This document shows positions 7,223 to 22,156 of a stretch of 64,000 bases of DNA, piece after piece; the stretch's first letter is position 1, and each line of letters starts with the position of its first letter. The notes beneath the pieces are model-generated. The model saw only the letters and a program-made list of their open reading frames with translations, did not search any database and was not told where the DNA came from. The translations under genes and the position numbers were made by a program. Source of the DNA: Rickettsiales bacterium (GTDB taxonomy: Bacteria > Pseudomonadota > Alphaproteobacteria > Rickettsiales > UBA3002); contig JALEGK010000011.1 of the NCBI GenBank assembly GCA_022763105.1, positions 15,671 through 79,670 on the forward strand, given 5' to 3'.

Positions 7223-8773
7223 ATGGTTGGCACATTATCGCCTCAGACAATTAAAACCGAAATTCTATCTGGCTTGACCGTTGCACTGGCATTGGTACCA
7301 GAAGCCGTGGCCTTTGCGTTCATCGCAGGGGTTGAGCCTCTGGTTGGCCTATATGCCGCCTTCTTGGTCGGGTTGATCACTTCTGCTTTTGGTGGCCGCC
7401 CTGGCATGATTTCTGGCGCGACCGGTGCTCTGGCTGTTGTGATGGTCAGCTTAGTGGCGCAGCATGGTGTTCAATATCTCTTCGCTACCGTCGTGCTTAT
7501 GGGCGTATTGCAAGCGTTAGCAGGCTTCTTCCGTTTGGGTAAATTCATCCGCATGGTGCCCTACCCTGTCATGCTTGGCTTTGTGAATGGCTTAGCGATT
7601 GTTATCTTTCTGGCTCAGCTGGGCCAGTTTAAAGTCGAAGATGCATCAGGCGCATTAGTCTGGATGCAGGGTGACCCGCTGCTGGTGATGTTTGGCATTA
7701 TCTCGATTACGATGGGCGTCATTTTGTTTCTGCCGAAGCTGACCTCTAAATTCCCTGCTCCGTTGGCCGGTATTCTGGTTGCCTCAGCTGTGGTGATTTT
7801 TGGCGACATCGATACGCGCACGGTGGGCGATATGGCAAGCATTGCCGGTAGCCTCCCTAGCTTTGCACTTCCCGATGTACCGCTTAACTTTGAGACTTTG
7901 CGTATCATCTTTCCTTATGCGCTGATTCTGGCGGCCATTGGTCTGATCGAGTCGTTGCTGACGCTGACTTTGATTGACGAGATGACCGAAACACGCGGAC
8001 GTAATAGCCGCGAATGTATTGCGCAAGGCGCGGCTAATGTCGTGACCGGATTTTTTGGCGGCATGGGCGGTTGTGCGATGATCGGCCAGAGCATGATTAA
8101 CATCAAGTCCGGCGGACGTCAGCGCTTAGCCGGTATTAGCGCCGCGTTATTCTTGCTGTGCTTTATTCTGTTTGCCTCACACTGGATTGAAATGATCCCA
8201 GTCGCCGCACTTATTGGCGTGATGTTTGTTGTCGTCATTGGCACGTTTGAATGGTCGTCTTTCCGTATCATTCACAAGATTCCACGCAGTGATGCGTTTG
8301 TGTTGATTCTGGTTTCTGCCGTTACGGTTGCCACTGACCTCGCTATTGCTGTGGTCGTTGGTGTCATCGTTTCTGCATTGGTGTTTGCATGGGAATCGGC
8401 TCGTTCAATCTATGTTGAGGCGAGCGAGGAAAAAGATGACCACATCACCTACACGTTGCATGGGCAGCTCTTCTTTGCGTCGATTAGCCGCTTTAAAGAA
8501 TTATTTGATCCGAGTAATGACCCGAAAGATGTCACGATTGATTTTCGCTATTCACGCGTGTGGGATCACTCAGCGCTTGAAGCGATTGATGCGCTGGCAG
8601 AGCGTTATATTCGCAATGACCGTCAATTGCATTTGCTGCATCTAAGTCGTGATTGTCGCGGTCTGCTCAAGCGCGCCGGACACCTTATTGAGATTGATGC
8701 AGAGAGTGACCCGCGTTATCGCGTGGTGGTGGATTATAAAAGTCATCCGCCGAAAGAGGAAGAGCTCGCTTAG
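7223..8773 (+). CDS. SulP family inorganic anion transporter with C-terminal STAS domain
   Basis: 516 aa, polytopic. SulP-like N-terminus ([21 protein letters not shown]) and a STAS-like tail ([19 protein letters not shown]). Confidence 0.9.
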
Positions 8774-9327
8774 TTATTAGGCGTCGCGGTGATGCTAAGC
8801 TTCACCGGAATCTCGCGGCTCACCCATTCGGCAGCACCGTCTGATGATTTGCCAATATCGTAAGCCAAACGGTCAATGGTGAGCGCGCCAGTGGCGATCA
8901 CCGGATTAGCGTCTAGATCTTTGATCGCAAACACCATGGTGACCGGCTTCGTGATGCCGCGTATCGTCAAATCACCGATTACTTTATATGTCCCATCTTC
9001 GGTAAGCGCAAAGCTCGATGAGGTAAAGCTCGCTTTGGGATGCTCCTTTACATTGAACCAGTCTTTGGTTGGCAATGTGCCGTCATACATGCTGTTGCCA
9101 GTGGTGGCGGTGCTAACATCGAAGCTGGCAGTAAAGCGGCTGGCGTCTAGTTTAGCTGGGTCGAATGATATCTCTGCTGACCAACCTATGAACGCCCCGT
9201 CAAAGACATTGCCCGCATGCTCACCAGAAAACGTCACCATGCTGTTCTCATAATCAATGGCGTAGTCTTTGGCCCATGCACCATGCGCAAAGAGCATACA
9301 TGCTAATGCTGTGATGATATGTTTCAT
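8770..9327 (-). CDS. YceI family periplasmic polyisoprenoid-binding protein
   Basis: Signal peptide [19 protein letters not shown] and YceI-like fold motifs. ATGA stop/start overlap with the upstream cytochrome b561 gene. SD GGTGGAG. Confidence 0.85.
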
Positions 9328-9887
9328 GCTTTGCTCCACCACATGCGCGTTAGCAGATTATGCTTATCGATGATGCGGTGTTTGATGACCGCACCGACAT
9401 GACCAATAATCATCAGCCCAAACAGAATCGCTAGATAGAAATGGGCGCTGTTTGATGCCTGATAGATTGCCTTATCATCAGATGTGATGGTGGGGATGTG
9501 CGGCCATTCAAACCAACCAAACACGATGGTGGGCAAGCCAAATGGGCTGGATGACACCATGACCCATCCGCTGAGCGGCATCAGGATCATGATGGCATAT
9601 AAGCCCCAATGACCGGCTTTGACCGCCAGACGTTCCAGCCCTTGGAGGTAGGCTGGAATATCTGGAGTATGTGTGATCAGGCGCACAAGCAATCTGAGTG
9701 CCGCAGCACAGAGCAATATTACCCCACCCGATTTGTGCCATTGATAGAGCTTGAAGGTCAGCGATTTTTCTAGCTCGATATAACTCATAGTGATGCCGCT
9801 ACCCAGCATCAGCAGGAAGCCAATCGCCATTAGCCAGTGCAGCACAATCGCGGCACTATGATAACGCGTAGGCGTTGACTCGTTCAT
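9324..9887 (-). CDS. cytochrome b561 family protein (CybB-like)
   Basis: 187 aa, 4 TM segments, conserved His (HWLMA, HKSGG, GHWGLY, HVGAVIKH). Confidence 0.85.
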   Translation of the reverse strand: MNESTPTRYHSAAIVLHWLMAIGFLLMLGSGITMSYIELEKSLTFKLYQWHKSGGVILLCAAALRLLVRLITHTPDIPAYLQGLERLAVKAGHWGLYAIMILMPLSGWVMVSSSPFGLPTIVFGWFEWPHIPTITSDDKAIYQASNSAHFYLAILFGLMIIGHVGAVIKHRIIDKHNLLTRMWWSKA

Positions 9888-10525
9888 TACTCGGCTTTCG
9901 CTTCTTCGGCTTTTTGCCCAAATTCGGTTTCAAGCAGAATCGTGATATCATCGCCGATCATAGGCACGTAAGTATCGAAGCCCCAGTCCGAACGTTTGAT
10001 ATTTGCTTTAGCAGAAAAACCCATTGCCGGTGCATTAGAGAATGGCTTTTTGGCATAGGCACCGTTGAAGACAACATCGAACATGACCGGCTTGGTTTCA
10101 CCCAGCATGGTCAGATCGCCCGTCATCACACCCGTATTCTCACCTGTCTTTGACACTTTGGTTGATTTAAATGTAATGGCTGGAAATTTGCCTGCATTAA
10201 ACCAATCCTCGCCTTCGGCCAATTTCATATTGAAATCTTCTTTCTCGGTGGCGGGAAAATCGGTTTCGATAGATAATGGGTCAATCGTTGCCGTCACTTT
10301 ACTTTTGGTCACGTCTTTGGGGTCATAATGAAGGGTCGCATCGATATCGGTAAAACGTGCAGTGTAATTCGACAGCCCTAGGTGATTCACCTTCCAGGTC
10401 ACGCTCGCATGGGTTTTATCGAGCGTATATTCACCGGCTGGCATTTCATTAGCCGGCGTCATATCAGCGGCGGCAGCCATCATCGGCAACAGCGCAGCGC
10501 CTATCATAAGCGTTTGTTTTAACAT
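9887..10525 (-). CDS. YceI family periplasmic protein
   Basis: Signal peptide MLKQTLMIGAALLPMMAAAA and YceI-like sequence. TAATG overlap with the downstream b561 gene. Confidence 0.85.
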   Translation of the reverse strand: MLKQTLMIGAALLPMMAAAADMTPANEMPAGEYTLDKTHASVTWKVNHLGLSNYTARFTDIDATLHYDPKDVTKSKVTATIDPLSIETDFPATEKEDFNMKLAEGEDWFNAGKFPAITFKSTKVSKTGENTGVMTGDLTMLGETKPVMFDVVFNGAYAKKPFSNAPAMGFSAKANIKRSDWGFDTYVPMIGDDITILLETEFGQKAEEAKAE

Positions 10526-10619
10526 ATTCTTTCTCCCTTACATGGTCAGATATGACCGTTATGTCTTGTTTATAGATGTGGCGAGGATGGCAGCGGGTTT
10601 CAAGATGTGCAATGCAAAA

Positions 10620-10672
10620 AGTTGAAAAAAGTAACCCCGCCAGTCAGGGCTTGGGGGCAGCGACTGGCGGGG
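10620..10672 (-). terminator. rho-independent terminator downstream of hsp20
   Basis: Perfect 11-bp stem CCCCGCCAGTC (10635-10645)/GACTGGCGGGG (10662-10672), followed on the minus strand by TTACTTTTTTCAACTTTTT. Confidence 0.65.
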
Positions 10673-10723
10673 CGCTAAGCCTTGGGAGCTTAGTTTATCA
10701 AGAAGGAGTATGGTTTGCTTACC

Positions 10724-11209
10724 TTACGACTTGAGCTTTTTGGCCTTTCCCTCTATGAGCTTTGCGTCATTACCACGCTCTGCATTGATTGGAATCATAC
10801 GCGGCTTGGCTTCTTCGGGCACGATGCGGGAGATCAGCACGCGCAGTAGCCCGTCTTTATGTTCTGCCGATTGCACGCGCATGTAATCGGCAAGTCGGAA
10901 GGTGCGTTCGAAGGCACGGGTCGCAATACCACGATGCAGGTACTCGACCTTATCCTCTTCTTCACGCGCTTCGATACGACCAGAAATTTTTAGCTCTTCC
11001 TTCTCGAGCGTTATGTTCAAATCTTTATCGGAGAAGCCAGCGACTGCCATGGTGATGGTGTAGTCATTGTCATTATGCTTCTCGATATTATAGGGCGGAT
11101 AGGCCAGCGAAGAATCATCTGTTTCGGACAGGCGATTAAACAATTCATCGAAGTGATCAAAGCCGACGCTTCGTCTGAAAAGCGGGGCGAACGAAAGGGC
11201 TGTTGTCAT
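10724..11209 (-). CDS. small heat-shock protein, Hsp20/IbpA family
   Basis: Alpha-crystallin domain (PPYNIEKHNDNDYTITMAVAGFSDKDLNITLEKEELKISG). SD AAGGAGG. Confidence 0.9.
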   Translation of the reverse strand: MTTALSFAPLFRRSVGFDHFDELFNRLSETDDSSLAYPPYNIEKHNDNDYTITMAVAGFSDKDLNITLEKEELKISGRIEAREEEDKVEYLHRGIATRAFERTFRLADYMRVQSAEHKDGLLRVLISRIVPEEAKPRMIPINAERGNDAKLIEGKAKKLKS

Positions 11210-11330
11210 GAGTGAACCTCCTTAACAAGCAAGATTAAACAACAAAATTAAACTAAACATAAGAGCACCACACCCGCACTGGCATGTGGTTACACGGCCA
11301 TGCATGCACCGTGTCTCTTACGTAATAAAA
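11210..11330 (-). promoter_or_regulatory. ROSE-like RNA thermometer in the hsp20 5' leader
   Basis: On the minus strand AAUCUUGCUU-GUU-AAGGAGGUU-CACUC-AUG. The UUGCU box can pair with the SD, leaving a bulged G. An upstream GC-rich hairpin is also present. Confidence 0.45.
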
Positions 11331-11397
11331 TTTAGTGCGCTGTGAAATTATTCAAGAGGTCAGATGAAATTTTTTGCAAAAAAATGCTGCAGCAATT

Positions 11398-12219
11398 TTA
11401 AAAGCCAAGCGCGACCACGTCTGCTACAAATTCTTCTGCATCGGCAAAACGAACCTCGTCTTCGCCTAACGTCGTAATGTTGGTGAGTGTTAGGGTGTGC
11501 CCGCTACCAAAGTCGATGACCAAACCGGTTTCTCCAAGTTCAGAATTCTCGATCATGGTGGCGTAATCTTCGATTTCGTTTGAACCTAAACCTGTCGCTA
11601 AGATGAGTACATCTTCAAAGCGGGTGAAATCGCTGACGACATCGACGTTACCGATCTGTGTGAAGAAGAACTGATCCGCACCATCGCCACCAATCAACGT
11701 ATCAGCACCGAGCTGGCCGATCATGACGTCATCACCGTCTTGTCCGTAGATGATATCGTCTCCCGCACCGCCAAAGAGTGAATCGCCTCCGGTGCCACCA
11801 TAAATACTATCGCTGCCACCATTACCCACGACGGTATCAGAACCTGCACCGCCATTTATGACATCTGCATCATCTTCCGGGTGCGCCAGACCGCCGCCAC
11901 CAGATAGCACGTCATCGCCATCTTGCCCGTCAATAATGTCCAGCCCGATACCTCCGTAAATGGTGTCGTTGCCACTATCTAAGCTTTCCTCTAAACCGCC
12001 GCCATAGATGGTGTCGTTACCTGCATTTCCGAACAGCCAATCCTCGCCACCTTCACCTGCCATTACATCGGCTGTGTCGATGGTATCGGCAATGGCAGTG
12101 CCGCCATAGATCGTATCGTCGCCATCGCCACCGAGCATACTGTCGATGCCGATTGTGCCGATTAACGTATCATTTCCGTCTGTACCAATGGTGCTTGAGA
12201 TAGCCGAGCCTCCTGTCAC
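11398..12219 (-). CDS. RTX (hemolysin-type calcium-binding) repeat protein
   Basis: About 15 GGxGxDxxx nonapeptide repeats (GGDGDDTIYGG, GNAGNDTIYGG, GGAGSDTVVGNGGSDSIYGGTGGDSLFGGAGDD) and an acidic/hydrophobic C-terminal tail. The only start is a GTG at 12219, directly after an in-frame TAA, with no SD. Confidence 0.75.
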   Translation of the reverse strand: MTGGSAISSTIGTDGNDTLIGTIGIDSMLGGDGDDTIYGGTAIADTIDTADVMAGEGGEDWLFGNAGNDTIYGGGLEESLDSGNDTIYGGIGLDIIDGQDGDDVLSGGGGLAHPEDDADVINGGAGSDTVVGNGGSDSIYGGTGGDSLFGGAGDDIIYGQDGDDVMIGQLGADTLIGGDGADQFFFTQIGNVDVVSDFTRFEDVLILATGLGSNEIEDYATMIENSELGETGLVIDFGSGHTLTLTNITTLGEDEVRFADAEEFVADVVALGF

Positions 12220-12331
12220 TTACTTGTATCAGCGTGTCATCTTGGTTTGCAACACGTTACTCTTAAATTTAGCATGACTGCCGCAGCGATCAAACACGGA
12301 ATATCGCTATTCATTTCAGCCATTTAAGGCG

Positions 12332-12820
12332 TTACATCGCATGCGTTAATGGCTCATGGGCCGTTTCATCGAGTAAAATACCCATATGAAAGGCGTCTAG
12401 CAGCCGGATCACGGCGTGTAATTTTGTGAGATCGAGCGGCTTATCCATATAGATATAAACGCCCTGCTCACGTGCTTGGTGCAATCGCTCGACACTGGTT
12501 TTACCCGACATGATGACAACGGGATAATGATTGGAGCTATCACGGGCGAGCCAGTCAGATGGAATGACCTGATTGGACAAAAACTCTAGCCCATTACCAT
12601 CAGGCAACTCGATGTCGAGGAACAACAGATCAACGTGATGATGCTGCATGTAATGTGCCGCCGATTGAATGGTACCGCAAAACTGCACATCATTGGTTAG
12701 GTTGTTACCGTCAAAAAAGGCTTCGAGCAATTTGCAATCCACCGAGTCATCTTCGACGACGAGAATATTAGCCAATCGCCATTGCCAGTGAATGGCTTTC
12801 TGTGTGTCTTTATCTGTCAT
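12332..12820 (-). CDS. stand-alone response-regulator receiver domain protein
   Basis: VVEDD, LLFLDIELPDGNG (phospho-acceptor Asp) and MDKPL (conserved Lys). No output domain. ATGA overlap with the upstream orf104. Confidence 0.85.
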   Translation of the reverse strand: MTDKDTQKAIHWQWRLANILVVEDDSVDCKLLEAFFDGNNLTNDVQFCGTIQSAAHYMQHHHVDLLFLDIELPDGNGLEFLSNQVIPSDWLARDSSNHYPVVIMSGKTSVERLHQAREQGVYIYMDKPLDLTKLHAVIRLLDAFHMGILLDETAHEPLTHAM

Positions 12821-13131
12821 GATGCGCTCATCATTTGTTGAATATAGCTATGCACGCCAAGGCCAATGATGGCGGCAAAGGCAATCGCCAATGCCTTGAA
12901 TAACGTCGCCCATAGAATGCGCATGGATTGGTGGAAGCTGCGGCGCACATCGCGCAGCAATTGAAAGTCGGCACGGGTTTGTTGCAGGTTGGCGCTTGGG
13001 TCAATGATGCCATAATGCAGCAACCAGTGATGCACCGGATCTGTTTTGTGCTCAGCATCGGCATGCTCTGTGAGCTTTAAAATATCGGCATGCAATGCGT
13101 CGTCATGTTTTGAAGATGTGATGTAATACAT
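12817..13131 (-). CDS. His-rich tail-anchored small membrane protein (ORFan)
   Basis: 104 aa with a strong SD (CAGGAGAG). Seven His in the first 40 residues and a single C-terminal TM segment (ILWATLFKALAIAFAAIIGLGV). Confidence 0.6.
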   Translation of the reverse strand: MYYITSSKHDDALHADILKLTEHADAEHKTDPVHHWLLHYGIIDPSANLQQTRADFQLLRDVRRSFHQSMRILWATLFKALAIAFAAIIGLGVHSYIQQMMSAS

Positions 13132-13169
13132 AGGCTCTCCTGATGAGAGCTTAGCGTGGCGCCCGCCCG

Positions 13170-13730: not shown

Positions 13731-15568
13731 GCTGTCTGCCTTTTCCGTAAAGATCGCGTGCGCATATATAGCACCGAAATGAGCGCTACCTCTATAGCAC
13801 AAAATGCGGCCAACCCAAAGGCGGCTTCTTCGGTGAAGCCATAAGAATGCAATCCGACATTGAGCAAGTTCACGCCAAACCATGACAGCGCAACAATGAT
13901 CGTGCTGCAGCTAAGCAATGCCGCAAAGCCATAGCGTCCTAGCTTGCCTGCCCATTTGCCATGCAGCAACCACACCAGCCAGAGCACGATGAGTAATGCG
14001 CCATTTTCTTTTGGGTCCCAACCCCAGAAACGCCCCCATGATTGATCGGCCCAGATGCCTCCTAAAATGGTGCCGACTGTGGTAAAGAGCAATGCTATAA
14101 TGGTGAGCATGAGCAATGCAGAGTGACGTGATTTATCGGGCGCAATCAGTGCAACATGCCCTGCCAGTCCGGCAATGAGTGTGGCGCCGTAGCCAATGGT
14201 GATGCAGACCACATGCGTTGCCAGCCAGAAGTTGGTATTGAGCACAGCGACCAGCACGCCCATACCGTCTTCGCCTTCGCCTAAATACAGCCCACTAATG
14301 CTAAGCAGAAATGCACCTAGCCCCGCGCCGATTACCATGCCTTCGGGGTAGGCTTTGCGTTTGGCAAGCCACAGCCCTAGCAGGGCCGCAATGAATGCCA
14401 CGAAGAGCACGGATTCGTAGAGCGTGCCAATGGGTGGGCGGCCAAGCACCAAAATGCGAATAATAATAGCAGCTGCATGCAATACGACGCTGGCGCCGAG
14501 CACATGACACGCCATGCGAGCTGCACGTAGATGTGGCTTGGATAGAGCGTAACATGCCAATAGTAGCGCGGCGACATAGCCCAGCATACTTAGCTCAATC
14601 AAATGGGCATCATAGTATAATTGCTCTAGCACCAAATCCCAACTTGAGACCATTTCTTGGCTTTGCATGCTCGCATTCAGCGCTGCAATCGATTGCAACC
14701 ATTGCGCCTGATCGCCTGCATGATACGCATCCATCAAGCCTTGCCATGAGGCAAACAGCTTGGCGGTGCTCGGCGAGCCTTTGCCATCATTGATAATCTC
14801 CCACGGCGAGAACCATTCTGGCTCTTCGCTCCAATCCGACGGGATAACGCGCAACAAATGATTATCGCGGCCGATGGAATGCAGCGATGCGTAGCGGTAG
14901 GAAAGCATGAGCAAGCGCTGTTCCCAATCGCTGTAGCGGCTGACATCATCGCCTTTCTTTTTCGCGATACGCTTCACTTCATTCTCAAGTGGGTTGAGCA
15001 TGTTGGCGACATCGATATAACGCCAGCGACTTTGTTTTGATTGCTGCATCCAATCGCGCAGCTTATCGTTCGTCTCAATCTTTTGCGGCAAGAGTAGTGA
15101 TAGGCTGCCGGTGATCTGCGTCATCGCATCGACCGCTTCGTATAGCTGCCAGATTCGACGTTCGGTCGCGCTGTAGCTATTGGCGTCTTTATTAGCCAGA
15201 CGTGTTAGCAGCGCCTTGTGTTTTTCCAGCGCCGGAGTGACTTCGCTATAGGCATAAAACCCGGATTCGCGTTCGGTGAGGTTGAGGAAACTCACCAGCG
15301 TATCATCGGCAATGGCAAAGACTGGCTGGTGGATGGCAAGGTCCGGGCGGAAGAGTGCTTGTGCCAACCATTCTGTCGCATTCATATTGGGAAGCTGCTC
15401 GGCCTTATGCATACGTCTTAGCTCTAGTTGGGCAAAGCGCTCTATCGGCTTAATGCGCCCTTCATGCAGAATGGGCAGCGCACCCAGTGCGTTGACATTA
15501 AGTGACTCTGCCTGCGCCGTGTGAGCAAGCAGCAACCACGCCATAAGGCTCAGTAGCAGCGCTCTCAT
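13727..15568 (-). CDS. ccsA: System II cytochrome c biogenesis protein CcsA/ResC with a long N-terminal periplasmic extension
   Basis: Signal peptide MRALLLSLMAWLLLAHTAQA and WWD domain WGRFWGWDPKENGALLIVLW. SD GGAGGAG. ATGA overlap with the resB stop. Confidence 0.9.
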   Translation of the reverse strand: MRALLLSLMAWLLLAHTAQAESLNVNALGALPILHEGRIKPIERFAQLELRRMHKAEQLPNMNATEWLAQALFRPDLAIHQPVFAIADDTLVSFLNLTERESGFYAYSEVTPALEKHKALLTRLANKDANSYSATERRIWQLYEAVDAMTQITGSLSLLLPQKIETNDKLRDWMQQSKQSRWRYIDVANMLNPLENEVKRIAKKKGDDVSRYSDWEQRLLMLSYRYASLHSIGRDNHLLRVIPSDWSEEPEWFSPWEIINDGKGSPSTAKLFASWQGLMDAYHAGDQAQWLQSIAALNASMQSQEMVSSWDLVLEQLYYDAHLIELSMLGYVAALLLACYALSKPHLRAARMACHVLGASVVLHAAAIIIRILVLGRPPIGTLYESVLFVAFIAALLGLWLAKRKAYPEGMVIGAGLGAFLLSISGLYLGEGEDGMGVLVAVLNTNFWLATHVVCITIGYGATLIAGLAGHVALIAPDKSRHSALLMLTIIALLFTTVGTILGGIWADQSWGRFWGWDPKENGALLIVLWLVWLLHGKWAGKLGRYGFAALLSCSTIIVALSWFGVNLLNVGLHSYGFTEEAAFGLAAFCAIEVALISVLYMRTRSLRKRQTA

Positions 15569-16698
15569 TGCTCCTCCTGCATGCGCTTATCGCGCTCTTT
15601 CATGCGGGTGATGCTGTGCCAGATCAGCCCCACCCCAATCACGAAACTTGAGATGTAGGGGAATAACCAGCCGTCATTTTTGACCACCGCTAACACGCTG
15701 ACCGTGCGGTCACGCTCTTGTGCGAGCGATGCTTGGTAGAGTGTATAGCCCTGAATACGCAGCGGCTCATTCATACGGATAAGGCTGCTATATTCAATAT
15801 CCTCTTGTTCGTGGATGGTCACCGCTGATTGATATTCGCGCGCCATCTCGCTTCCCGGATGGGTGAATTTCTCGACGGATTGCAGTGAGATCGCAAAGGG
15901 CAATTCGCGCTCGGTGCGGCGCATGGCAAGCTGATAGGTCGCGCCACCCAACTCAAAGGATGATGGGTGCGGCAAACTCTCAAACGCAATATAGATGCCG
16001 TCGATCTCATCGGATGCGCCGGTAACATATAGCATGGCACCGGTTTGGTTTTCCTCATCCTGCTTCATCAGGTTTGCATCTTTCAGATCAAAGCGCGCAG
16101 CAATATGATGGCGCGGCGTATCTGATTCTGGCACTTCGGTAGGCATACAATTGCGGCAATAATTCACGATGCGGATATCAAATGGCATTGCCTCTGCTTG
16201 CAGCACCATCTCGTCATGCAGATCATGATGCGGCAGTTGCAGGATCACCTCATCGTCTTTTATCACGACGAACTCGCGCGCATGATAATCGGAGACGATG
16301 TGCTTCTTATCACCTGCCCCAAGCGCCACATAGCCTTCTTGTGCCGTCAGTGACGTCAGCACGCCACCCAGCAATAACAGCAACGCACCGATATGCGTTA
16401 GGATAATGCCCGCATTGCGCCAGCTCCAATAGGTAGCAAACACAGTTTTGATGAAAAGCGGAATGGTGATGAGGCTGAGCACTAGATACACGCCGGGCAT
16501 GGGAATGGGACCATACCACACCACCCAAGAGGCAAAAAATAGTCGCTCCGCCTCATATAGCCCGATGGCACGCTGCGCCAATGTGCCCAGAATTAGTAGC
16601 ACCATTAGATAGGGCATGACGTAGAAAATAATCGCCGGGGAGCTGAGCGTTTTCAGACGTGTTTGCATGCGCCCTGTTATAGGGGCATGGTTAAGCAA
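15565..16698 (-). CDS. System II cytochrome c biogenesis protein ResB/CcsB-like
   Basis: 377 aa. N-terminal TM pairs, a large periplasmic loop, and a C-terminal TM after the YTLYQAS motif. Start is ambiguous: TTG at 16698 or ATG at 16668. Confidence 0.75.
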   Translation of the reverse strand: MLNHAPITGRMQTRLKTLSSPAIIFYVMPYLMVLLILGTLAQRAIGLYEAERLFFASWVVWYGPIPMPGVYLVLSLITIPLFIKTVFATYWSWRNAGIILTHIGALLLLLGGVLTSLTAQEGYVALGAGDKKHIVSDYHAREFVVIKDDEVILQLPHHDLHDEMVLQAEAMPFDIRIVNYCRNCMPTEVPESDTPRHHIAARFDLKDANLMKQDEENQTGAMLYVTGASDEIDGIYIAFESLPHPSSFELGGATYQLAMRRTERELPFAISLQSVEKFTHPGSEMAREYQSAVTIHEQEDIEYSSLIRMNEPLRIQGYTLYQASLAQERDRTVSVLAVVKNDGWLFPYISSFVIGVGLIWHSITRMKERDKRMQEEQ

Positions 16699-16719: not shown

Positions 16720-17841
16720 TTAGCCTTTATTACCACCAAACATGCCACCGACTGCGTCCCATTCGCTGTCGATTGCTTCCTTCATGGCTTCCATATCGAT
16801 CTCTTCTTCACCCAGCACTGCTTCGCGCTCATCAGCCAGCTTGGCTTCTGCCTCTTGTTTGGCAGCTTGCTGCTCTTGCTCAGATTTGATCGCCCGGGCT
16901 TTATCATCATCCCAATCTTTCAGGCATTCAAACGTCAAGCCGTATTGGGTGCTGCTGCGTGCTGCAACATAGACAGCGACATGTGGCAGGCGCGTCTCGA
17001 TGATTTTGATAAAGCGCTCTCGGATATGGTCTGGGGTGGCACAGCCAAAATAGATCGCATCGATGGCGAGCGGGTTGTATGGCACGTCTTCAAACTTATC
17101 GCGGCTAATACGGCGCAGGCAGCGCCATTCTTTTTCATAAGACCATTCCAGTGCTTTGGTGAAGCACAGATCTTCAAAGACTTTGCGCGGGTTTGGTGGC
17201 TTGGCTACCGCCACTTTGAATAGCTCGTGGTTTAGCGCTTCGGGCATATTATTCGAATATTGCACTGGCTGGCAGACAGCGAAATCGTAAGAGCCATTAT
17301 GACGCTGCGTGCGCAGTTGAATCACCACGCCTTTATGGTTGTCGGCATAATGCGTCCACATTTGCATGTTGTTTTTCGTGGCCGAAGCGCAGAAAAAGCC
17401 CAGCTGTCTTGAGAAGGCATCGACCTGGTGGTTGACCTTGCGCGAGACCTCTTCGATCTTGCGGTATTTCGCCTTAATATTGCTCTCTAGCGTCGCGTAT
17501 AGCTGCTGGCGGTTACTTTCCTGCTCGCGCTTGATCGACATAATCACCGACTTGATCGCCGGATTCATATCGCCACCTTCAAAGTACGGGTTGGAGACCA
17601 TGGTGCGCGCTTCACGCATGAATTGCTTGGTTTCCTGATCGGCATCAAACTTACGCAGCAGATCAAACTGCATCTCGTACGGATCGTGGAATTGGTCTTG
17701 CAAGCTCCAGCGGAAAACTTGTGATTCCACGGCATTCATGCCGGCATCCAAATCCATATATTTATATAAGGTCACATTTCGCTTCTGTGACAGCATCTCT
17801 TTGAGGTCTTCGGTAAAGATACGTTTGACGGCTTCTTCCAT
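16720..17841 (-). CDS. DUF2971-like protein with acidic/Lys-rich coiled C-terminus
   Basis: N-terminal LYKYMDLDAGMNAVESQVFRWSLQDQFHDPYEM resembles the DUF2971 signature (Y.Y....l....l.fs....fNDP.E). Identification is from memory only. Confidence 0.5.
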   Translation of the reverse strand: MEEAVKRIFTEDLKEMLSQKRNVTLYKYMDLDAGMNAVESQVFRWSLQDQFHDPYEMQFDLLRKFDADQETKQFMREARTMVSNPYFEGGDMNPAIKSVIMSIKREQESNRQQLYATLESNIKAKYRKIEEVSRKVNHQVDAFSRQLGFFCASATKNNMQMWTHYADNHKGVVIQLRTQRHNGSYDFAVCQPVQYSNNMPEALNHELFKVAVAKPPNPRKVFEDLCFTKALEWSYEKEWRCLRRISRDKFEDVPYNPLAIDAIYFGCATPDHIRERFIKIIETRLPHVAVYVAARSSTQYGLTFECLKDWDDDKARAIKSEQEQQAAKQEAEAKLADEREAVLGEEEIDMEAMKEAIDSEWDAVGGMFGGNKG

Positions 17842-17993: not shown

Positions 17994-19241
17994 TTAATCA
18001 TCCGTCATTTTGAGGGCTGCGATAAAGGCGCTTTGCGGGATATCGACATTGCCGATAGAGCGCATCTTTTTCTTACCTTTTTTCTGCTTTTCCAGAAGCT
18101 TGCGCTTACGGGTAATGTCACCGCCATAGCATTTTGCGGTCACATCTTTACGCATGGCAGCGATGGTCTCGCGGGCGATGATTTTACCGCCAATTGCGGC
18201 TTGCACCGGAATCTTGAACAGGTGGCGTGGGATGAGGTCTTTGAGCTTCGCGCACAAAGCCCGACCACGTGTTTCTGCCTGGCTGCGGTGGACCATGAGC
18301 GCCAGCGCATCGACCGGCTCGCTATTGACCAGCACGCTCAGCTTGACCAGATCACCCGGCTCGTGGCCTGCCATTTCATAATCGAAAGACGCATAGCCTT
18401 TTGAGCAGCTTTTTAGACGGTCATAAAAATCAAACACCACCTCGTTGAGCGGTAGCTTGTAAATCGCCATGGCGCGGGTGCCGACATAGGTCAGCTCTTC
18501 TTGCACGCCTCGTTTTTCGGTACATAGATTCAGCACATTGCCCAAAAACTCGTCGGGCACCATGATGGTGGCACGAATCCAAGGCTCGCGCACTTCCTGA
18601 ATTTTGACAACGTCGGGGTAATCGACCGGATTGTGCAGCAAAATCTCTTCGCCATCGGTCATGGTTAGCTCATAGACCACGCTTGGCGCGGTGGTGATCA
18701 GATCGACATCATATTCGCGCTCTAGCCGTTCTTGAATAATCTCTAGGTGCAGCAGCCCCAAAAAGCCGCAGCGGAAGCCTAGTCCCAATGCCGACGAGCT
18801 TTCTGGCTCGTAAAGAAAAGACGCATCATTCAGATGCAGCTTGCCCAAAGAATCGCGCAAGTGGTCATACTCGCCATTATCCGTCGGGTAGATACCGCAG
18901 AACACCACAGGCTGCACGGGTTTGAAACCTGCGAGTGGCTTCTCGGTCTGGCGTTTTTCTTCTGTAATCGTGTCACCGACCTTGGTATCGGCCACCTGCT
19001 TAATACCGGTGATGATATAGCCAACTTCACCCGGACCAAGCGATTTGACTTCTTCCGTCTTTGGGGTGAATACGCCCACCTGGTTCACATCTTGCGTGAC
19101 TTTCGCATTCATGAAGCGGATTTTCTGGCCCTTCTTCAGTTCGCCCTCATAGACGCGCACCAAAATAATGACGCCGAGATAGGTGTCGTACCAGCTATCG
19201 ATGAGTAGCGCTTTGAGCGGATTATTGATCAGACCAGACAT
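17994..19241 (-). CDS. lepA: elongation factor 4 (LepA), C-terminal piece (domains II-V plus CTD); gene interrupted
   Basis: [30 protein letters not shown] ... [24 protein letters not shown] ... [23 protein letters not shown]. 415 aa, no frameshifts. The ATG at 19239-19241 directly abuts the resumed LepA sequence. Confidence 0.9.
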
Positions 19242-20887
19242 GGGGCATGGTTATGCACGACTAACACGGCGTTGACAACCAGTAGATCGTATAAAAACAC
19301 GGTTATTTTTGGCCATCCTAAGGCTTTATTAATATTTTGATGCTAGGGTACGATGGGGAAATAAACACATCTTTACAGGGATTTATGGCCACCAACTGGG
19401 CAAAAGAACTAGAAGCATTGGGTATCACGCTGGGCCGAGTCGAGCGCGATCCTGCTAAACGTGCAAAAAGTTTGGCTGGAGAGTCAGTCAAATTACCTGC
19501 CACAGCGCAAGCATGGCTAAATGCCAGAACAACAGATGACACACTGATCGACCCCGCTATTGCTGGAAACGCCAAGATGAGAGCCTTGTTTGAGTTAACT
19601 CAGGCCGAGGCATCGCTCGGCAATATGGCAAACAGGCTTTATAATGGTGGCATAACACATGTGATTTCTGTCGATGAAACAGAATTTATCCTCGGCAGGC
19701 CTGATAGTACCAAGTTTGACGAAGGTGGCATATATTTGCAAAAAGAGAAGCTCTCTACCACAGAGCTCGCTTCTTTAAGCCAAGATGTTATTGTGCATGA
19801 GGCTGGACATGCGGTTAGCTATCTACTGGCCGAACCAGTGCAAGATGCGATTGATCGCCATTTGCCTGAAGCGATTAGCGCATTCAAAAAAGACATTAAA
19901 GCATTGCCACCTGAAACATGGCAAGCGCTTAAAAGCCATTCCAACCCAATGGTACAGACATGGGCTTCGACACAAGGCAAGCTTCATCAAGATTTGGTCA
20001 ACCGCCCGAGTGGTACGTTGCATTACCTTGAAATTGTTATGAACCCTGATGATTATAAGCTTGGCAATTATATGGTTGATCCATTTTCTTCTACGCTTAC
20101 TGCTATTGGGGCCATCAATTCTGATCCGGAATTAGCCAAACATTTCCCACAGCTGACCGGGGTCAGAGACAAACACCAAGCCATTTTCAGCACCATTCAA
20201 ACAGAAGGGTTTGCACTTAAAATGATTGGGGAGATTGCTCATCACCCCAAGCTGATGGAGGCTATGAAAAAAGATATTGAGCATATCAAGCGAAATGGTT
20301 ATGCAGCCAGCAATGATGGGTATTTGCGCGGGCATCCTGCCGGTGATTTTAATGCACATCATTATTTAACACGTGCTTTGGGCGGCGAGCATGACACCGA
20401 GCCACAAATGGCTACAGAAGCATTTGCCGAGCTCTTTGCAGATGTTGTAACCGGTACGCAAAACCCGCGCTTATCTGTTTACATGCCCAATATGACCAAA
20501 GAAGTGTCTGCTTTGGTTCATACGTTGAAAGATACCAGTTTAGGGGTCGCCAAAGACAGAAAGGCAGCCGTTACTGTTGATCAAGGTGGCGCAGAGCAGC
20601 CTTTGACTTGTGGGTTCGCTTTTTCGAAGCTGGATGATGCCATTAAAGACACAATGAAAACCGCCCGCGCTACTGGCGTGGCGTATGACCGAGATGCCGC
20701 TTTAACGTCTGGACTTAAAAAGATTCGCGAAGAGACCGGACAGTCTGAAGGCATGTCTGATGCTGATATGCTAGAGAAGATTAAAGCGGATGGGTGCAGC
20801 TTGCCCATGATGCTGAAGAATGCGAAGGTTAAAGACGATGCTCAACCGGCTAAAGACGGTCAGGGGCGATAGCGCAATCTAATAGGC
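19239..20887. other. 1649-bp insertion interrupting lepA; no transposase, integrase or reverse transcriptase
   Basis: Boundaries were inferred by matching LPAP (20888-20899) and [11 protein letters not shown] (from 19238 downward) to the conserved PxP-x6-PL(K/Q)AL spacing of intact LepA. The insertion contains one opposite-strand ORF. Confidence 0.7.
19385..20872 (+). CDS. HExxH zincin-like ORFan (putative metalloprotease) carried by the lepA insertion
   Basis: HEAGH at 19796-19810 and TEAFAELFAD at 20414-20443. The ORF is open from 19337; the ATG at 19385 is preferred. At least five in-frame AGA/AGG Arg codons. Confidence 0.65.
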   Translation: MATNWAKELEALGITLGRVERDPAKRAKSLAGESVKLPATAQAWLNARTTDDTLIDPAIAGNAKMRALFELTQAEASLGNMANRLYNGGITHVISVDETEFILGRPDSTKFDEGGIYLQKEKLSTTELASLSQDVIVHEAGHAVSYLLAEPVQDAIDRHLPEAISAFKKDIKALPPETWQALKSHSNPMVQTWASTQGKLHQDLVNRPSGTLHYLEIVMNPDDYKLGNYMVDPFSSTLTAIGAINSDPELAKHFPQLTGVRDKHQAIFSTIQTEGFALKMIGEIAHHPKLMEAMKKDIEHIKRNGYAASNDGYLRGHPAGDFNAHHYLTRALGGEHDTEPQMATEAFAELFADVVTGTQNPRLSVYMPNMTKEVSALVHTLKDTSLGVAKDRKAAVTVDQGGAEQPLTCGFAFSKLDDAIKDTMKTARATGVAYDRDAALTSGLKKIREETGQSEGMSDADMLEKIKADGCSLPMMLKNAKVKDDAQPAKDGQGR

Positions 20888-21451
20888 TGGCGCTGGAAGT
20901 CGGGTGACAATCGCTTCCAGTAAATCTTCAATACCTATTCCCGTTTTGGCCGAGACCATCGCAGCATCCGATGCATCGATGCCGATCACCTCTTCGATTT
21001 GTTCTTTCACACGGTCTGGCTCAGCCGCGGGCAGATCGATCTTGTTGAGCACGGGGATGATCTCTAGATCCTGATCGATGGCTTGGTAGACGTTTGCAAG
21101 CGTTTGCGCTTCTACGCCTTGCGCAGCGTCAACAACCAGCAGCGCACCTTCACACGCACTTAAACAACGTGACACTTCGTAGGCAAAGTCAACGTGACCC
21201 GGCGTGTCCATTAGATTGAGTATATAGGTTTCGCCATCTTTTGCTTTGTAAACCAAACGCACCGTTTGCGATTTAATGGTAATGCCGCGCTCGCGCTCAA
21301 GCTCCATATTATCGAGCATCTGCTCTTGCAAATCGCGCTCTTCCACAGCGCCACAATGCTGAATCAGTCGGTCAGCCAGCGTCGATTTGCCGTGATCAAT
21401 ATGGGCAATGATCGAAAAGTTGCGGATGTTTTGTGGTTTATCTTGAGCCAT
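20879..21451 (-). CDS. lepA: elongation factor 4 (LepA), N-terminal GTPase-domain piece; gene interrupted
   Basis: [15 protein letters not shown] (G1), DTPGHVDF (G3), LNKIDL (G4). Ends [10 protein letters not shown]-stop (TAG at 20879-20881). Confidence 0.92.
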
Positions 21452-21493: not shown

Positions 21494-22156
21494 TTATCGG
21501 TCCTTGGAGTGGCTTTGGTCATGAATGAGCTGCTCATACATATCTTGAGCCAACACGGCTGAGGGAATCGCGCCGCAAATCATAGTCAGATTCGCCACCA
21601 CGGCTTCTGAGAATTTGGTGTTTGCCCCAATTTTCACTTCGTTAAAGGCGTATTTATCAAGCGCCTTTTCAGCGTCGCCAATGAAGTTATTGATGGCCTT
21701 GTTGTTGCCCTTGCCTTTGCGCATGAAGGTATTGGCTAGCTCCCACGCGGTTTGTGATCCGGCAACGCCTGCCAGCCAGCCGGTAGCCACGCGGCGCGTG
21801 TCTTGGCCCACACTGTAATCTTTATCGGAACCTTCACGATCTCTTCGTCTGCGCGCTTGGCCTACCGCTGTGGTGACGGTGGTGGTGAAGCCAGCGGCAT
21901 ACATGACCGCGTTATTGACGATCATGCGCGAATATTCATGGGTATATTCCGGCGAGAAATCGGGGCGGTATTTCTGCACAATCTTCTCTACTGCCTGTGC
22001 TGCATGGTCCAGCTTGGTAGGCGCCACGCTACGCCCCACCCATACCGCGCCAATGGCAGCGGCGATGCCCACAATCTGGCTTTGGACAAACTCCATCGCC
22101 CGCGCGCTATGCACGTTGCTTTTGCTTACTTCCTGCGATGTGCCTTTATCGCTCAA
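21494..22156 (-). CDS. hypothetical membrane protein (ORFan)
   Basis: 220 aa with hydrophobic segments (IVGIAAAIGAVWV, AVMYAAGFTTTV, LTMICGAIPSAVL). TTG start at 22156 after GAAAGG. Stop lies 42 nt upstream of the lepA start. Confidence 0.5.
   Translation of the reverse strand: MSDKGTSQEVSKSNVHSARAMEFVQSQIVGIAAAIGAVWVGRSVAPTKLDHAAQAVEKIVQKYRPDFSPEYTHEYSRMIVNNAVMYAAGFTTTVTTAVGQARRRRDREGSDKDYSVGQDTRRVATGWLAGVAGSQTAWELANTFMRKGKGNNKAINNFIGDAEKALDKYAFNEVKIGANTKFSEAVVANLTMICGAIPSAVLAQDMYEQLIHDQSHSKDR

Follow-up and report, generated by a model that had tools for sequence, protein, structure and literature searches.

In a 64-kb stretch of the genome of a Rickettsiales bacterium (GenBank assembly GCA_022763105.1, contig JALEGK010000011.1, positions 15,671 to 79,670 of the forward strand; hereafter the window, meaning this whole stretch of 64,000 nucleotides), lepA, the gene for elongation factor 4 (EF4), is present as two separate open reading frames (ORFs) of 190 and 415 codons that lie about 1.65 kb apart, and the canonical single LepA chain of about 600 residues is not encoded there. 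The same break, directly after the motif RLPxP, recurs in dozens of related metagenome-assembled genomes (MAGs) and metagenome contigs of uncultured marine Alphaproteobacteria, and both parts are conserved as strictly as intact LepA. It is probable, judging from sequence comparison, that this arrangement is an old, heritable fission of lepA that gives rise to a working EF4 composed of two subunits.

The two halves of the split EF4 gene

The upstream ORF (lepA-N; Table 1) contains the G-domain motifs G1 (AHIDHGKST), G3 (DTPGH) and G4 (NKID), and its only Pfam match is GTP_EFTU (E = 8.5e-58); the downstream ORF (lepA-C) matches GTP_EFTU_D2, EFG_III, EFG_C and LepA_C, the last with E = 1.3e-50. 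Against TIGR01393, the NCBIfam equivalog model of lepA (595 positions), lepA-N covers positions 1-183 (E = 7e-100) and lepA-C positions 186-594 (E = 1e-187, 625 bits), and the score of lepA-N alone, 335 bits, is under the 533.9-bit cut-off of the model. Similarly, residues 2-183 of E. coli LepA (3cb4) are aligned by lepA-N and residues 188-594 by lepA-C. The ranges abut without overlap on both references, and therefore the two ORFs are adjacent pieces of one EF4. A reading of the window made earlier from its letters (the sequence-only reading) had proposed just such a split of lepA into two contiguous fragments, and the ORF list, Pfam and the TIGR01393 and E. coli alignments agree with it in both coordinates and quoted sequences. 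According to these alignments, the cut site is the linker of a few residues between domain I and domain II.

In codon-level comparison with intact lepA genes from two related loci (L010 and L098), the homology of the N side stops at the Pro codon 20888-20890, and in alignment with that of L010 it restarts at the Pro codon before LKALL, at about 19220. The non-LepA ends thus delimited comprise two residues (AY) on the N-half and eight (MSGLINNP) on the C-half. The sequence-only reading had counted 1649 bp (19239..20887) as foreign to lepA; its arithmetic is right, but the alignment with the L010 gene gives about 1667 bp standing in place of a linker of 18-21 bp. A second, intact lepA, which would make the locus a decaying duplicate, was looked for within the 64 kb of the window, and no further lepA-like sequence was found there.

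Table 1. Features of the split lepA locus and its immediate surroundings (positions in the window).
Feature	Position	Strand	Description and basis
DUF2971 protein, downstream of lepA-C	16720..17841	-	Pfam DUF2971; PADLOC PDC-S31 (candidate phage-defence family), E = 4e-42
lepA-C (EF4 domains II, III, V and LepA C-terminal domain)	17994..19241	-	415 aa; ORF list, Pfam, TIGR01393
Promoter-like element, ending at the lepA-C start codon	19239..19278	-	TTGTCA (19278-19273), 17 nt, CATAAC (19255-19250), 8 nt, ATG (19241-19239)
Divergent intergenic region between lepA-C and cargo gene	19242..19384	.	Sequence
Cargo gene, antisense to lepA, encoding an HExxH (HEAGHAVSY) protein	19385..20872	+	495 aa from likely start M17
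Non-LepA tail of lepA-N (Ala-Tyr-stop)	20879..20887	-	Codon-level comparison with intact lepA of L010 and L098
lepA-N (free-standing EF4 G domain, domain I)	20879..21451	-	190 aa, ends RLPAP-AY-stop; ORF list, Pfam, TIGR01393
220-aa ORF, upstream of lepA-N	21494..22156	-	No family match (Pfam, PADLOC, NCBIfam)

Occurrence and arrangement of the split in relatives

The split loci come from independent assemblies (NCBI MAGs, ENA, JGI and Logan), many of them on long contigs. Free-standing N-halves are 187-197 residues long and stop 0-9 residues past RLPxP, and free-standing C-halves are 411-433 residues long and begin 2-13 residues ahead of P-LKALL. This variation shows that the slot of exactly six residues with Gly in second position, from which the sequence-only reading had mapped the break, is a coincidence of the window locus. 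In three of the related loci (L003:8567-8570, L005:8539-8570 and L090:8582-8585), lepA-N and a convergent ORF share 4-32 nt at their 3′ ends, and therefore the variable N-tails are partly dictated by the antisense gene.

Approximately 31 of the 120 closest homologues of the C-part are free-standing C-halves, and among C-part matches of at least 77% identity the split and intact forms stand at about 2:1. The list obtained by searching with the N-half is skewed to short proteins (a full-length protein of 93% identity, P0138, was omitted from it) and overstates the share of split forms; the C-half list is the fairer sample.

The two halves are separated by different sets of genes in different lineages. 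A single antisense ORF of 207 residues lies between them in L003 (GCA_028279475.1), two ORFs of 82 and 422 residues in L007/L008/L009 (GCA_002346425.1, ENA and JGI), three ORFs in L091-L093 (three samples), and four, including a gene for an MscS channel, in L090, where the halves are 3.2 kb apart. In L101/L102 (GCA_964564675.1 and Logan), the gap is occupied by an antisense orthologue of the gene found in the window. In other genomes the halves are no longer neighbours: the C-half is located 5.4 kb upstream of the N-half and on the opposite strand in L005, a 692-kb scaffold; no C-half is present within 8 kb of the N-half in L094, where both halves are on the same 100-kb contig; and the halves occupy unrelated neighbourhoods in L001/L100, from a genome with a 1.76-Mb contig. 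Wherever both can be traced, an N-half and a C-half co-occur, as in the pairs P0019/P0173, P0021/P0150, P0033/P0153, P0008/P0147 and P0024/P0149, which were matched by shared contig sizes.

At least two of the C-halves, P0153 (MBN67566.1) and P0165 (TAF75370.1), both of 417 residues, are deposited in NCBI nr as 'elongation factor 4', and none of the five N-halves looked up had an accession or a name; the split is thus hidden by public annotation.

Selection on both halves

The ratio of nonsynonymous to synonymous substitution rates (dN/dS) was estimated by the Nei-Gojobori method for every pairwise comparison within a set of ten loci, eight of them split and two intact. Across the halves, dN is 0.05-0.21, dS is about 1 or more (saturated) and dN/dS is 0.03-0.12; compared with relatives, lepA-N of the window gives 0.03-0.12 and its lepA-C 0.04-0.11, and the intact-intact pair gives 0.10-0.12. 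No internal stop is present in the halves of the eight split loci. Furthermore, within one group the distance to an outgroup is not significantly greater for split than for intact C-parts (0.294 vs. 0.289, p = 0.42), and hence no acceleration of the rate is seen. Synonymous sites are saturated, dN/dS is low and the halves are all open; therefore, they are the products neither of a recent disruption nor of decay. The possibility that they are pseudogenes was considered and rejected on the same grounds, and the earlier statement that neither half shows decay holds for the relatives as well.

A promoter-like element at the start of the C-half

In the window and in three other divergent loci (L101, L007 and L091), a sequence of the form TTGNNN, 17 nt, CATAA(C/A), 7 or 8 nt and ATG ends exactly at the lepA-C start codon. 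With slightly wider spacing (TTGNNN-N16-18-CATAA[AC]-N6-9-ATG), the pattern is found at the same ATG in L101/L102, L007/L008 and L091-L093, the spacers and upstream genes of which differ; in the 64-kb window it occurs once, and 50 shuffles gave no match. This conservation suggests that lepA-C has a dedicated promoter and a separate transcript that would be leaderless or nearly so, and that the four junctions with the common element are homologous. Members of the other split group (L003 and L005) have a different motif, TGTATGTA, 7-9 nt ahead of the ATG.

The intervening DNA and its cargo gene

The gap in the window contains one long gene, termed here the cargo gene, that is antisense to lepA and had gone unmentioned in the sequence-only reading. 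A longer reading from a TTG at 19337 would give 511 residues, but the start at 19385 is likely because the homologues begin at Met17. The cargo gene and lepA-N are convergent with stop codons 6 nt apart, the cargo gene and lepA-C are divergent with starts 143 nt apart, and the G+C content of the intervening DNA is slightly lower than that of the surroundings (0.45-0.50 vs. 0.52-0.56).

The cargo protein has no match in Pfam, NCBIfam or PADLOC. A word-based homologue search returned the query itself only, and an exhaustive search of 1.84 billion representative proteins yielded a very rare family of only 17 clusters with the conserved motifs G.TH, HEAGHALSY, HY.P..GG and EEAFAE. When these 17 members were scanned individually against Pfam, one gave SprT-like (E = 0.008) and one HNH_5 (E = 0.28), neither of which is significant. 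The exact protein was found in no other assembly and is on record from a single contig; of two metagenome scans with cargo alignments, the first used an alignment that was too divergent and the second gave no confirmed locus. An AlphaFold2 model of moderate confidence (pLDDT, the predicted local distance difference test, 74; pTM, the predicted template modelling score, 0.72) has no significant match among PDB and viral structures; the weak, non-significant matches are to anthrax lethal factor and the Pro-Pro endopeptidase PPEP-1/Zmp1 (E 0.2-3) and to phage polyvalent proteins. That the cargo is a zinc metallopeptidase is a reasonable guess, and no more. It is a curious observation that an HExxH protein is encoded next to a break after the Pro-rich RLP(A/P)P, with the Pro-Pro endopeptidase PPEP-1 among its weak fold matches.

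The closest relative of the cargo, the orthologue P0122, is only 33-36% identical to it and occupies the same place in the same orientation between the lepA halves of L101. Shorter relatives of the cargo are present in the gaps of L091 (L091:10370-11350(-)), antisense and adjoining the C-half, and of L090 (L090:8582-9385(-)), convergent on the N-half. P0126 in L103, which is more distantly related to the family, is located outside lepA, and the other lepA gaps contain ORFs unrelated to the cargo. The cargo thus looks like a long-resident, fast-evolving passenger and not like the agent of the split. The neighbourhood of P0126 (L103:3272-3637, 8359-13161) includes a Rap1a gene, which resembles immunity genes of type VI secretion systems, and a 1600-residue ORF without a family match, and it hints at a possible role of the cargo family in antagonism or as effectors.

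The intervening DNA likewise shows no signs of a mobile or self-splicing element. When terminal inverted repeats and a target-site duplication were looked for around the insert, only short chance matches turned up, and no transposase, integrase or nuclease domain was detected at the locus by Pfam or NCBIfam. The cargo has no signature of a homing endonuclease (GIY-YIG, HNH or LAGLIDADG), and its weak fold matches are metalloproteases, not nucleases. Between 19100 and 21000, no group I or group II intron was matched in Rfam at E <= 1, and the sole long ORF there is antisense; in the whole window, the only Rfam match at the gathering threshold is tRNA-Cys. No Hint domain of an intein was found by Pfam, and a split intein is ruled out because the ends of two and eight residues are too short for intein halves. 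The sequence-only reading had called this DNA foreign to lepA; if a mobile-element insertion is meant, none of these searches bears it out.

Probable history of fission and possible re-fusion or replacement

A neighbour-joining tree of the LepA C-part (407 columns, 100 bootstraps), the backbone of which is weakly supported, contains two groups with split genes. Nearly all members of the first are split and have conserved junction residues (PR[VI]L in the N-tail and NPNxLP in the C-head). The second, to which the window belongs, has 99% support and is a mixture of split and intact forms, with short and variable ends. By parsimony, the state changes between split and intact 7-12 times over the bootstraps.

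On the N-half side, the window, L090, L101, L007, L091 and L094 have in common genes of the Metallophos, GT4, TrkH, GT2, UbiH-like and Amt types, of which Metallophos and GT4 are carried by both the window and L101, and L003 and L101 have genes in common downstream of the C-half. The promoter-like element, the synteny on the N-side and these downstream genes all point to common descent of the split alleles. None of the N-side genes is present at the closest intact loci, L010 and L098, which is a further argument for this common descent. The comparison with an empty site in near relatives that the sequence-only reading had proposed was attempted with these two loci, but they have no flanking gene in common with the window.

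The reverse change may also have taken place. The intact protein P0148 is sister (90%) to the split P0149, within a clade that has the old PRVL / NP.ELP junction, and its linker, DEIEGSDDPRSLP, is unusually long and resembles the head of P0149, MSENPRELP. From these sequences, at least one intact allele, that of P0148, looks like a re-fusion. The 18 residues inserted in the linker of the intact P0141 also speak for some reversal. Such a reversal could be a re-fusion by way of a deletion, or the recombination of an intact allele into the locus.

In-frame expansions of 6-18 residues are present in the linkers of several intact LepAs, namely P0141 (L098:8001-9860), in which 18 residues are inserted, P0214/P0240/P0252 and P0191/P0250. 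As far as the alignments tell, the domain I/II linker is tolerant of insertions well beyond the split lineages. The canonical alphaproteobacterial linker KGDxxAP is missing in the whole wider group, including its intact members, and a relaxed linker may thus have preceded the fission.

A proposed two-subunit EF4 and its alternatives

The most probable model is that lepA was cut long ago at the flexible domain I/II linker in the lineage of the window genome and of a group of uncultured marine Alphaproteobacteria, and that EF4 has since consisted of two polypeptides, the genes of which are expressed independently, with lepA-C transcribed from its own promoter before the ATG. The G domain encoded by lepA-N would dock non-covalently on domain II of the lepA-C product via the native interface, in solution or on the ribosome, and the docked pair would act there as EF4. 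The gap between the halves would have come to accommodate accessory genes that evolve fast or can be replaced, and in some lineages the halves would have drifted apart or become inverted. Occasionally, the halves would have been joined again, or an intact allele would have taken the place of the split one. It is also tempting to speculate, although this extension is only tentative, that EF4 in this group is a true two-component translational GTPase with reversible fission, and that the ultra-conserved half-genes enclose a heritable slot for cargo and may serve as homology arms through which lineages exchange accessory genes and split or intact alleles.

Several points weigh against the model. 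The association of the two polypeptides and their EF4 activity are inferred from sequence. The ends of the halves are short and variable and offer no obvious added interaction module, unlike the NrdA protein of phage Aeh1. The promoter pattern was found by eye and defined post hoc from the same loci, so that it is not an independent test; a generic sigma-70 scan called no promoter for lepA-C, and the -10 element lacks the canonical T at position 6. The junctions of the window contig itself come from a single assembly, for which no second one was found, and an intact lepA paralogue may lie beyond the 64 kb searched. Moreover, lepA is dispensable in laboratory E. coli, so that each half might in principle be selected for a function of its own.

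This last point leads to the main competing explanation, in which both halves are kept but work apart, for example with the G domain serving as a GTPase on its own and the C-part binding to the ribosome. The unlinked or inverted halves of several genomes and the short, variable ends without an evident docking module would suit such separate roles; however, N- and C-halves co-occur wherever both are traceable, and their dN/dS is as low as that of intact LepA without any acceleration, contrary to what is expected of a change of function. Division of labour is thus unlikely. Still less probable is that a site-specific mobile element, with the HExxH or other cargo as its agent, has repeatedly hit the lepA linker and produced many independent, recent splits. 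The interleaving of split and intact forms on the tree, with its 7-12 changes, and the presence of the HExxH family in the gaps of the window, L101, L091 and L090 are in line with repeated targeting. On the contrary, neither repeats nor any domain of a nuclease, recombinase or transposase were found at the locus, P0126 lies outside lepA and other gaps hold unrelated ORFs, the flanking synteny and C-half promoter common to the split loci indicate common descent, and the backbone of the tree on which the interleaving depends is weak.

Of the three possibilities left open by the sequence-only reading, the comparative evidence favours a two-piece EF4 that is functional and argues against both an insertion of very recent date and an artefact of assembly. 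A recent insertion that broke lepA and left two young pseudogenes would account for the intact ORFs of the window and for the slightly lower G+C content of the intervening DNA, but it is very improbable in view of split lineages that are saturated at synonymous sites with all halves open at dN/dS <= 0.12, a same-site cargo orthologue that has diverged down to 33-36% identity, and a conserved promoter-like element at the C-half start. A chimeric join within lepA, arising in assembly or binning, is hardly tenable: the exact cargo protein of the window is indeed known from a single contig and absent from other assemblies, but the junctions are repeated in independent assemblies (L101 vs. L102; L007/L008/L009; L091/L092/L093; 24 contigs for P0008), and an artefact is therefore ruled out as a general explanation; nor would a chimeric join make a stop, a start codon and a promoter-like element coincide so exactly with the boundary of two domains. 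Equally implausible is that a single EF4 chain is restored by splicing of an intron, by trans-splicing or a split intein, or by ribosomal bypass. Such repair does occur in other essential genes that are fragmented, for example DnaE with its split intein and the 'fractured genes' of metagenomes (PMC2677866), but here there is no Rfam intron at E <= 1, no Hint domain and no more than 2 + 8 residues at the ends, the intervening gene is antisense, and the halves are inverted or far apart in some genomes.

Genomic neighbourhood

The gene immediately downstream of lepA-C encodes a DUF2971 protein with a match to the candidate phage-defence family PDC-S31 (Table 1), and no homologue of it was found beside lepA in the related loci, so that the surroundings of lepA look variable and defence-island-like. 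Approximately 6 kb from lepA-C, a 273-residue protein (11398..12219, minus strand) contains four RTX calcium-binding nonapeptide repeats (HemolysinCabind, E = 2e-31). Defence-like genes also adjoin lepA-N in two relatives (L005:8539-10900; L094:8613-10202, 15368-16570), comprising a HerA/DUF87 ATPase, an MmeI-type restriction-modification enzyme, and an ABC/AAA_21 ATPase with a 475-residue partner that overlaps the stop of the N-half by 32 nt.

Comparison with known systems

A search of the literature found no report of a split lepA or EF4. To our knowledge, the G domain of translational GTPases (EF-Tu, EF-G, IF2, RF3, BipA and LepA) is always covalently joined to domain II, and the coupling of domains I and II is central to ribosome-triggered GTP hydrolysis. 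The split EF4 resembles the canonical proteins of E. coli (3cb4) and T. thermophilus (4w2e) in its five domains, its G1-G4 motifs and an identity of 60-70% over both halves; by contrast, it lacks the covalent link between domains I and II. This natural, long-lived and selected cut would offer a ready system for asking how far the coupling needs covalent continuity and, if the tentative extension of the model holds, cells would tolerate, and perhaps exploit, the separate expression of a G domain and a ribosome-binding body. In practical terms, lepA is a widely used single-copy marker for phylogeny and genome completeness, for which annotation of these genomes will report a pair of genes, a fragment or a pseudogene. 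The locus is also a clear case of a core gene made into a slot for variable genes.

Stable fissions of core information-processing genes include cyanobacterial rpoC1/rpoC2, archaeal rpoB'/rpoB'' and the split genes of Nanoarchaeum equitans. As in these fissions, the split of lepA is lineage-wide and vertical, lies at a domain boundary, leaves both parts under purifying selection and sometimes unlinks them. However, the earlier examples are fixed in whole phyla and concern subunits of large complexes, whereas the split of lepA affects a monomeric translational GTPase and is polymorphic and apparently reversible, and all of this makes the case notable. In the 'fractured genes' of marine metagenomes, a conserved gene is likewise in two pieces around an inserted gene, with the products joined by split inteins (Dassa et al., 2009; PMC2677866); the lepA halves have no intein halves, and so they are not ligated by trans-splicing.

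The split lepA may thus be regarded as a case of gene fission, or 'genes in pieces', for which the closest analogue appears to be nrdA of phage Aeh1, a gene cut by the mobE homing endonuclease (nrdA-a / mobE / nrdA-b), whose product forms from two separate chains (Crona et al., 2011; PMC3045599). In both systems, a conserved single-chain gene is retained as two ORFs with another gene between them and without RNA or protein splicing, the assembly of the two chains being, in the case of EF4, the predicted step. The two systems differ in that the Aeh1 insert is a homing endonuclease whereas the lepA cargo has no nuclease signature. The insertion-derived tails of the Aeh1 protein are essential interaction domains; the lepA N-tails measure 0-9 residues and the C-heads 2-13, and they vary within the group of the window but have conserved residues (PR[VI]L and NPNxLP) in the other group. 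Finally, unlike the phage gene, the split lepA is carried by a cellular host, its gap content varies from lineage to lineage, and its halves can be unlinked.

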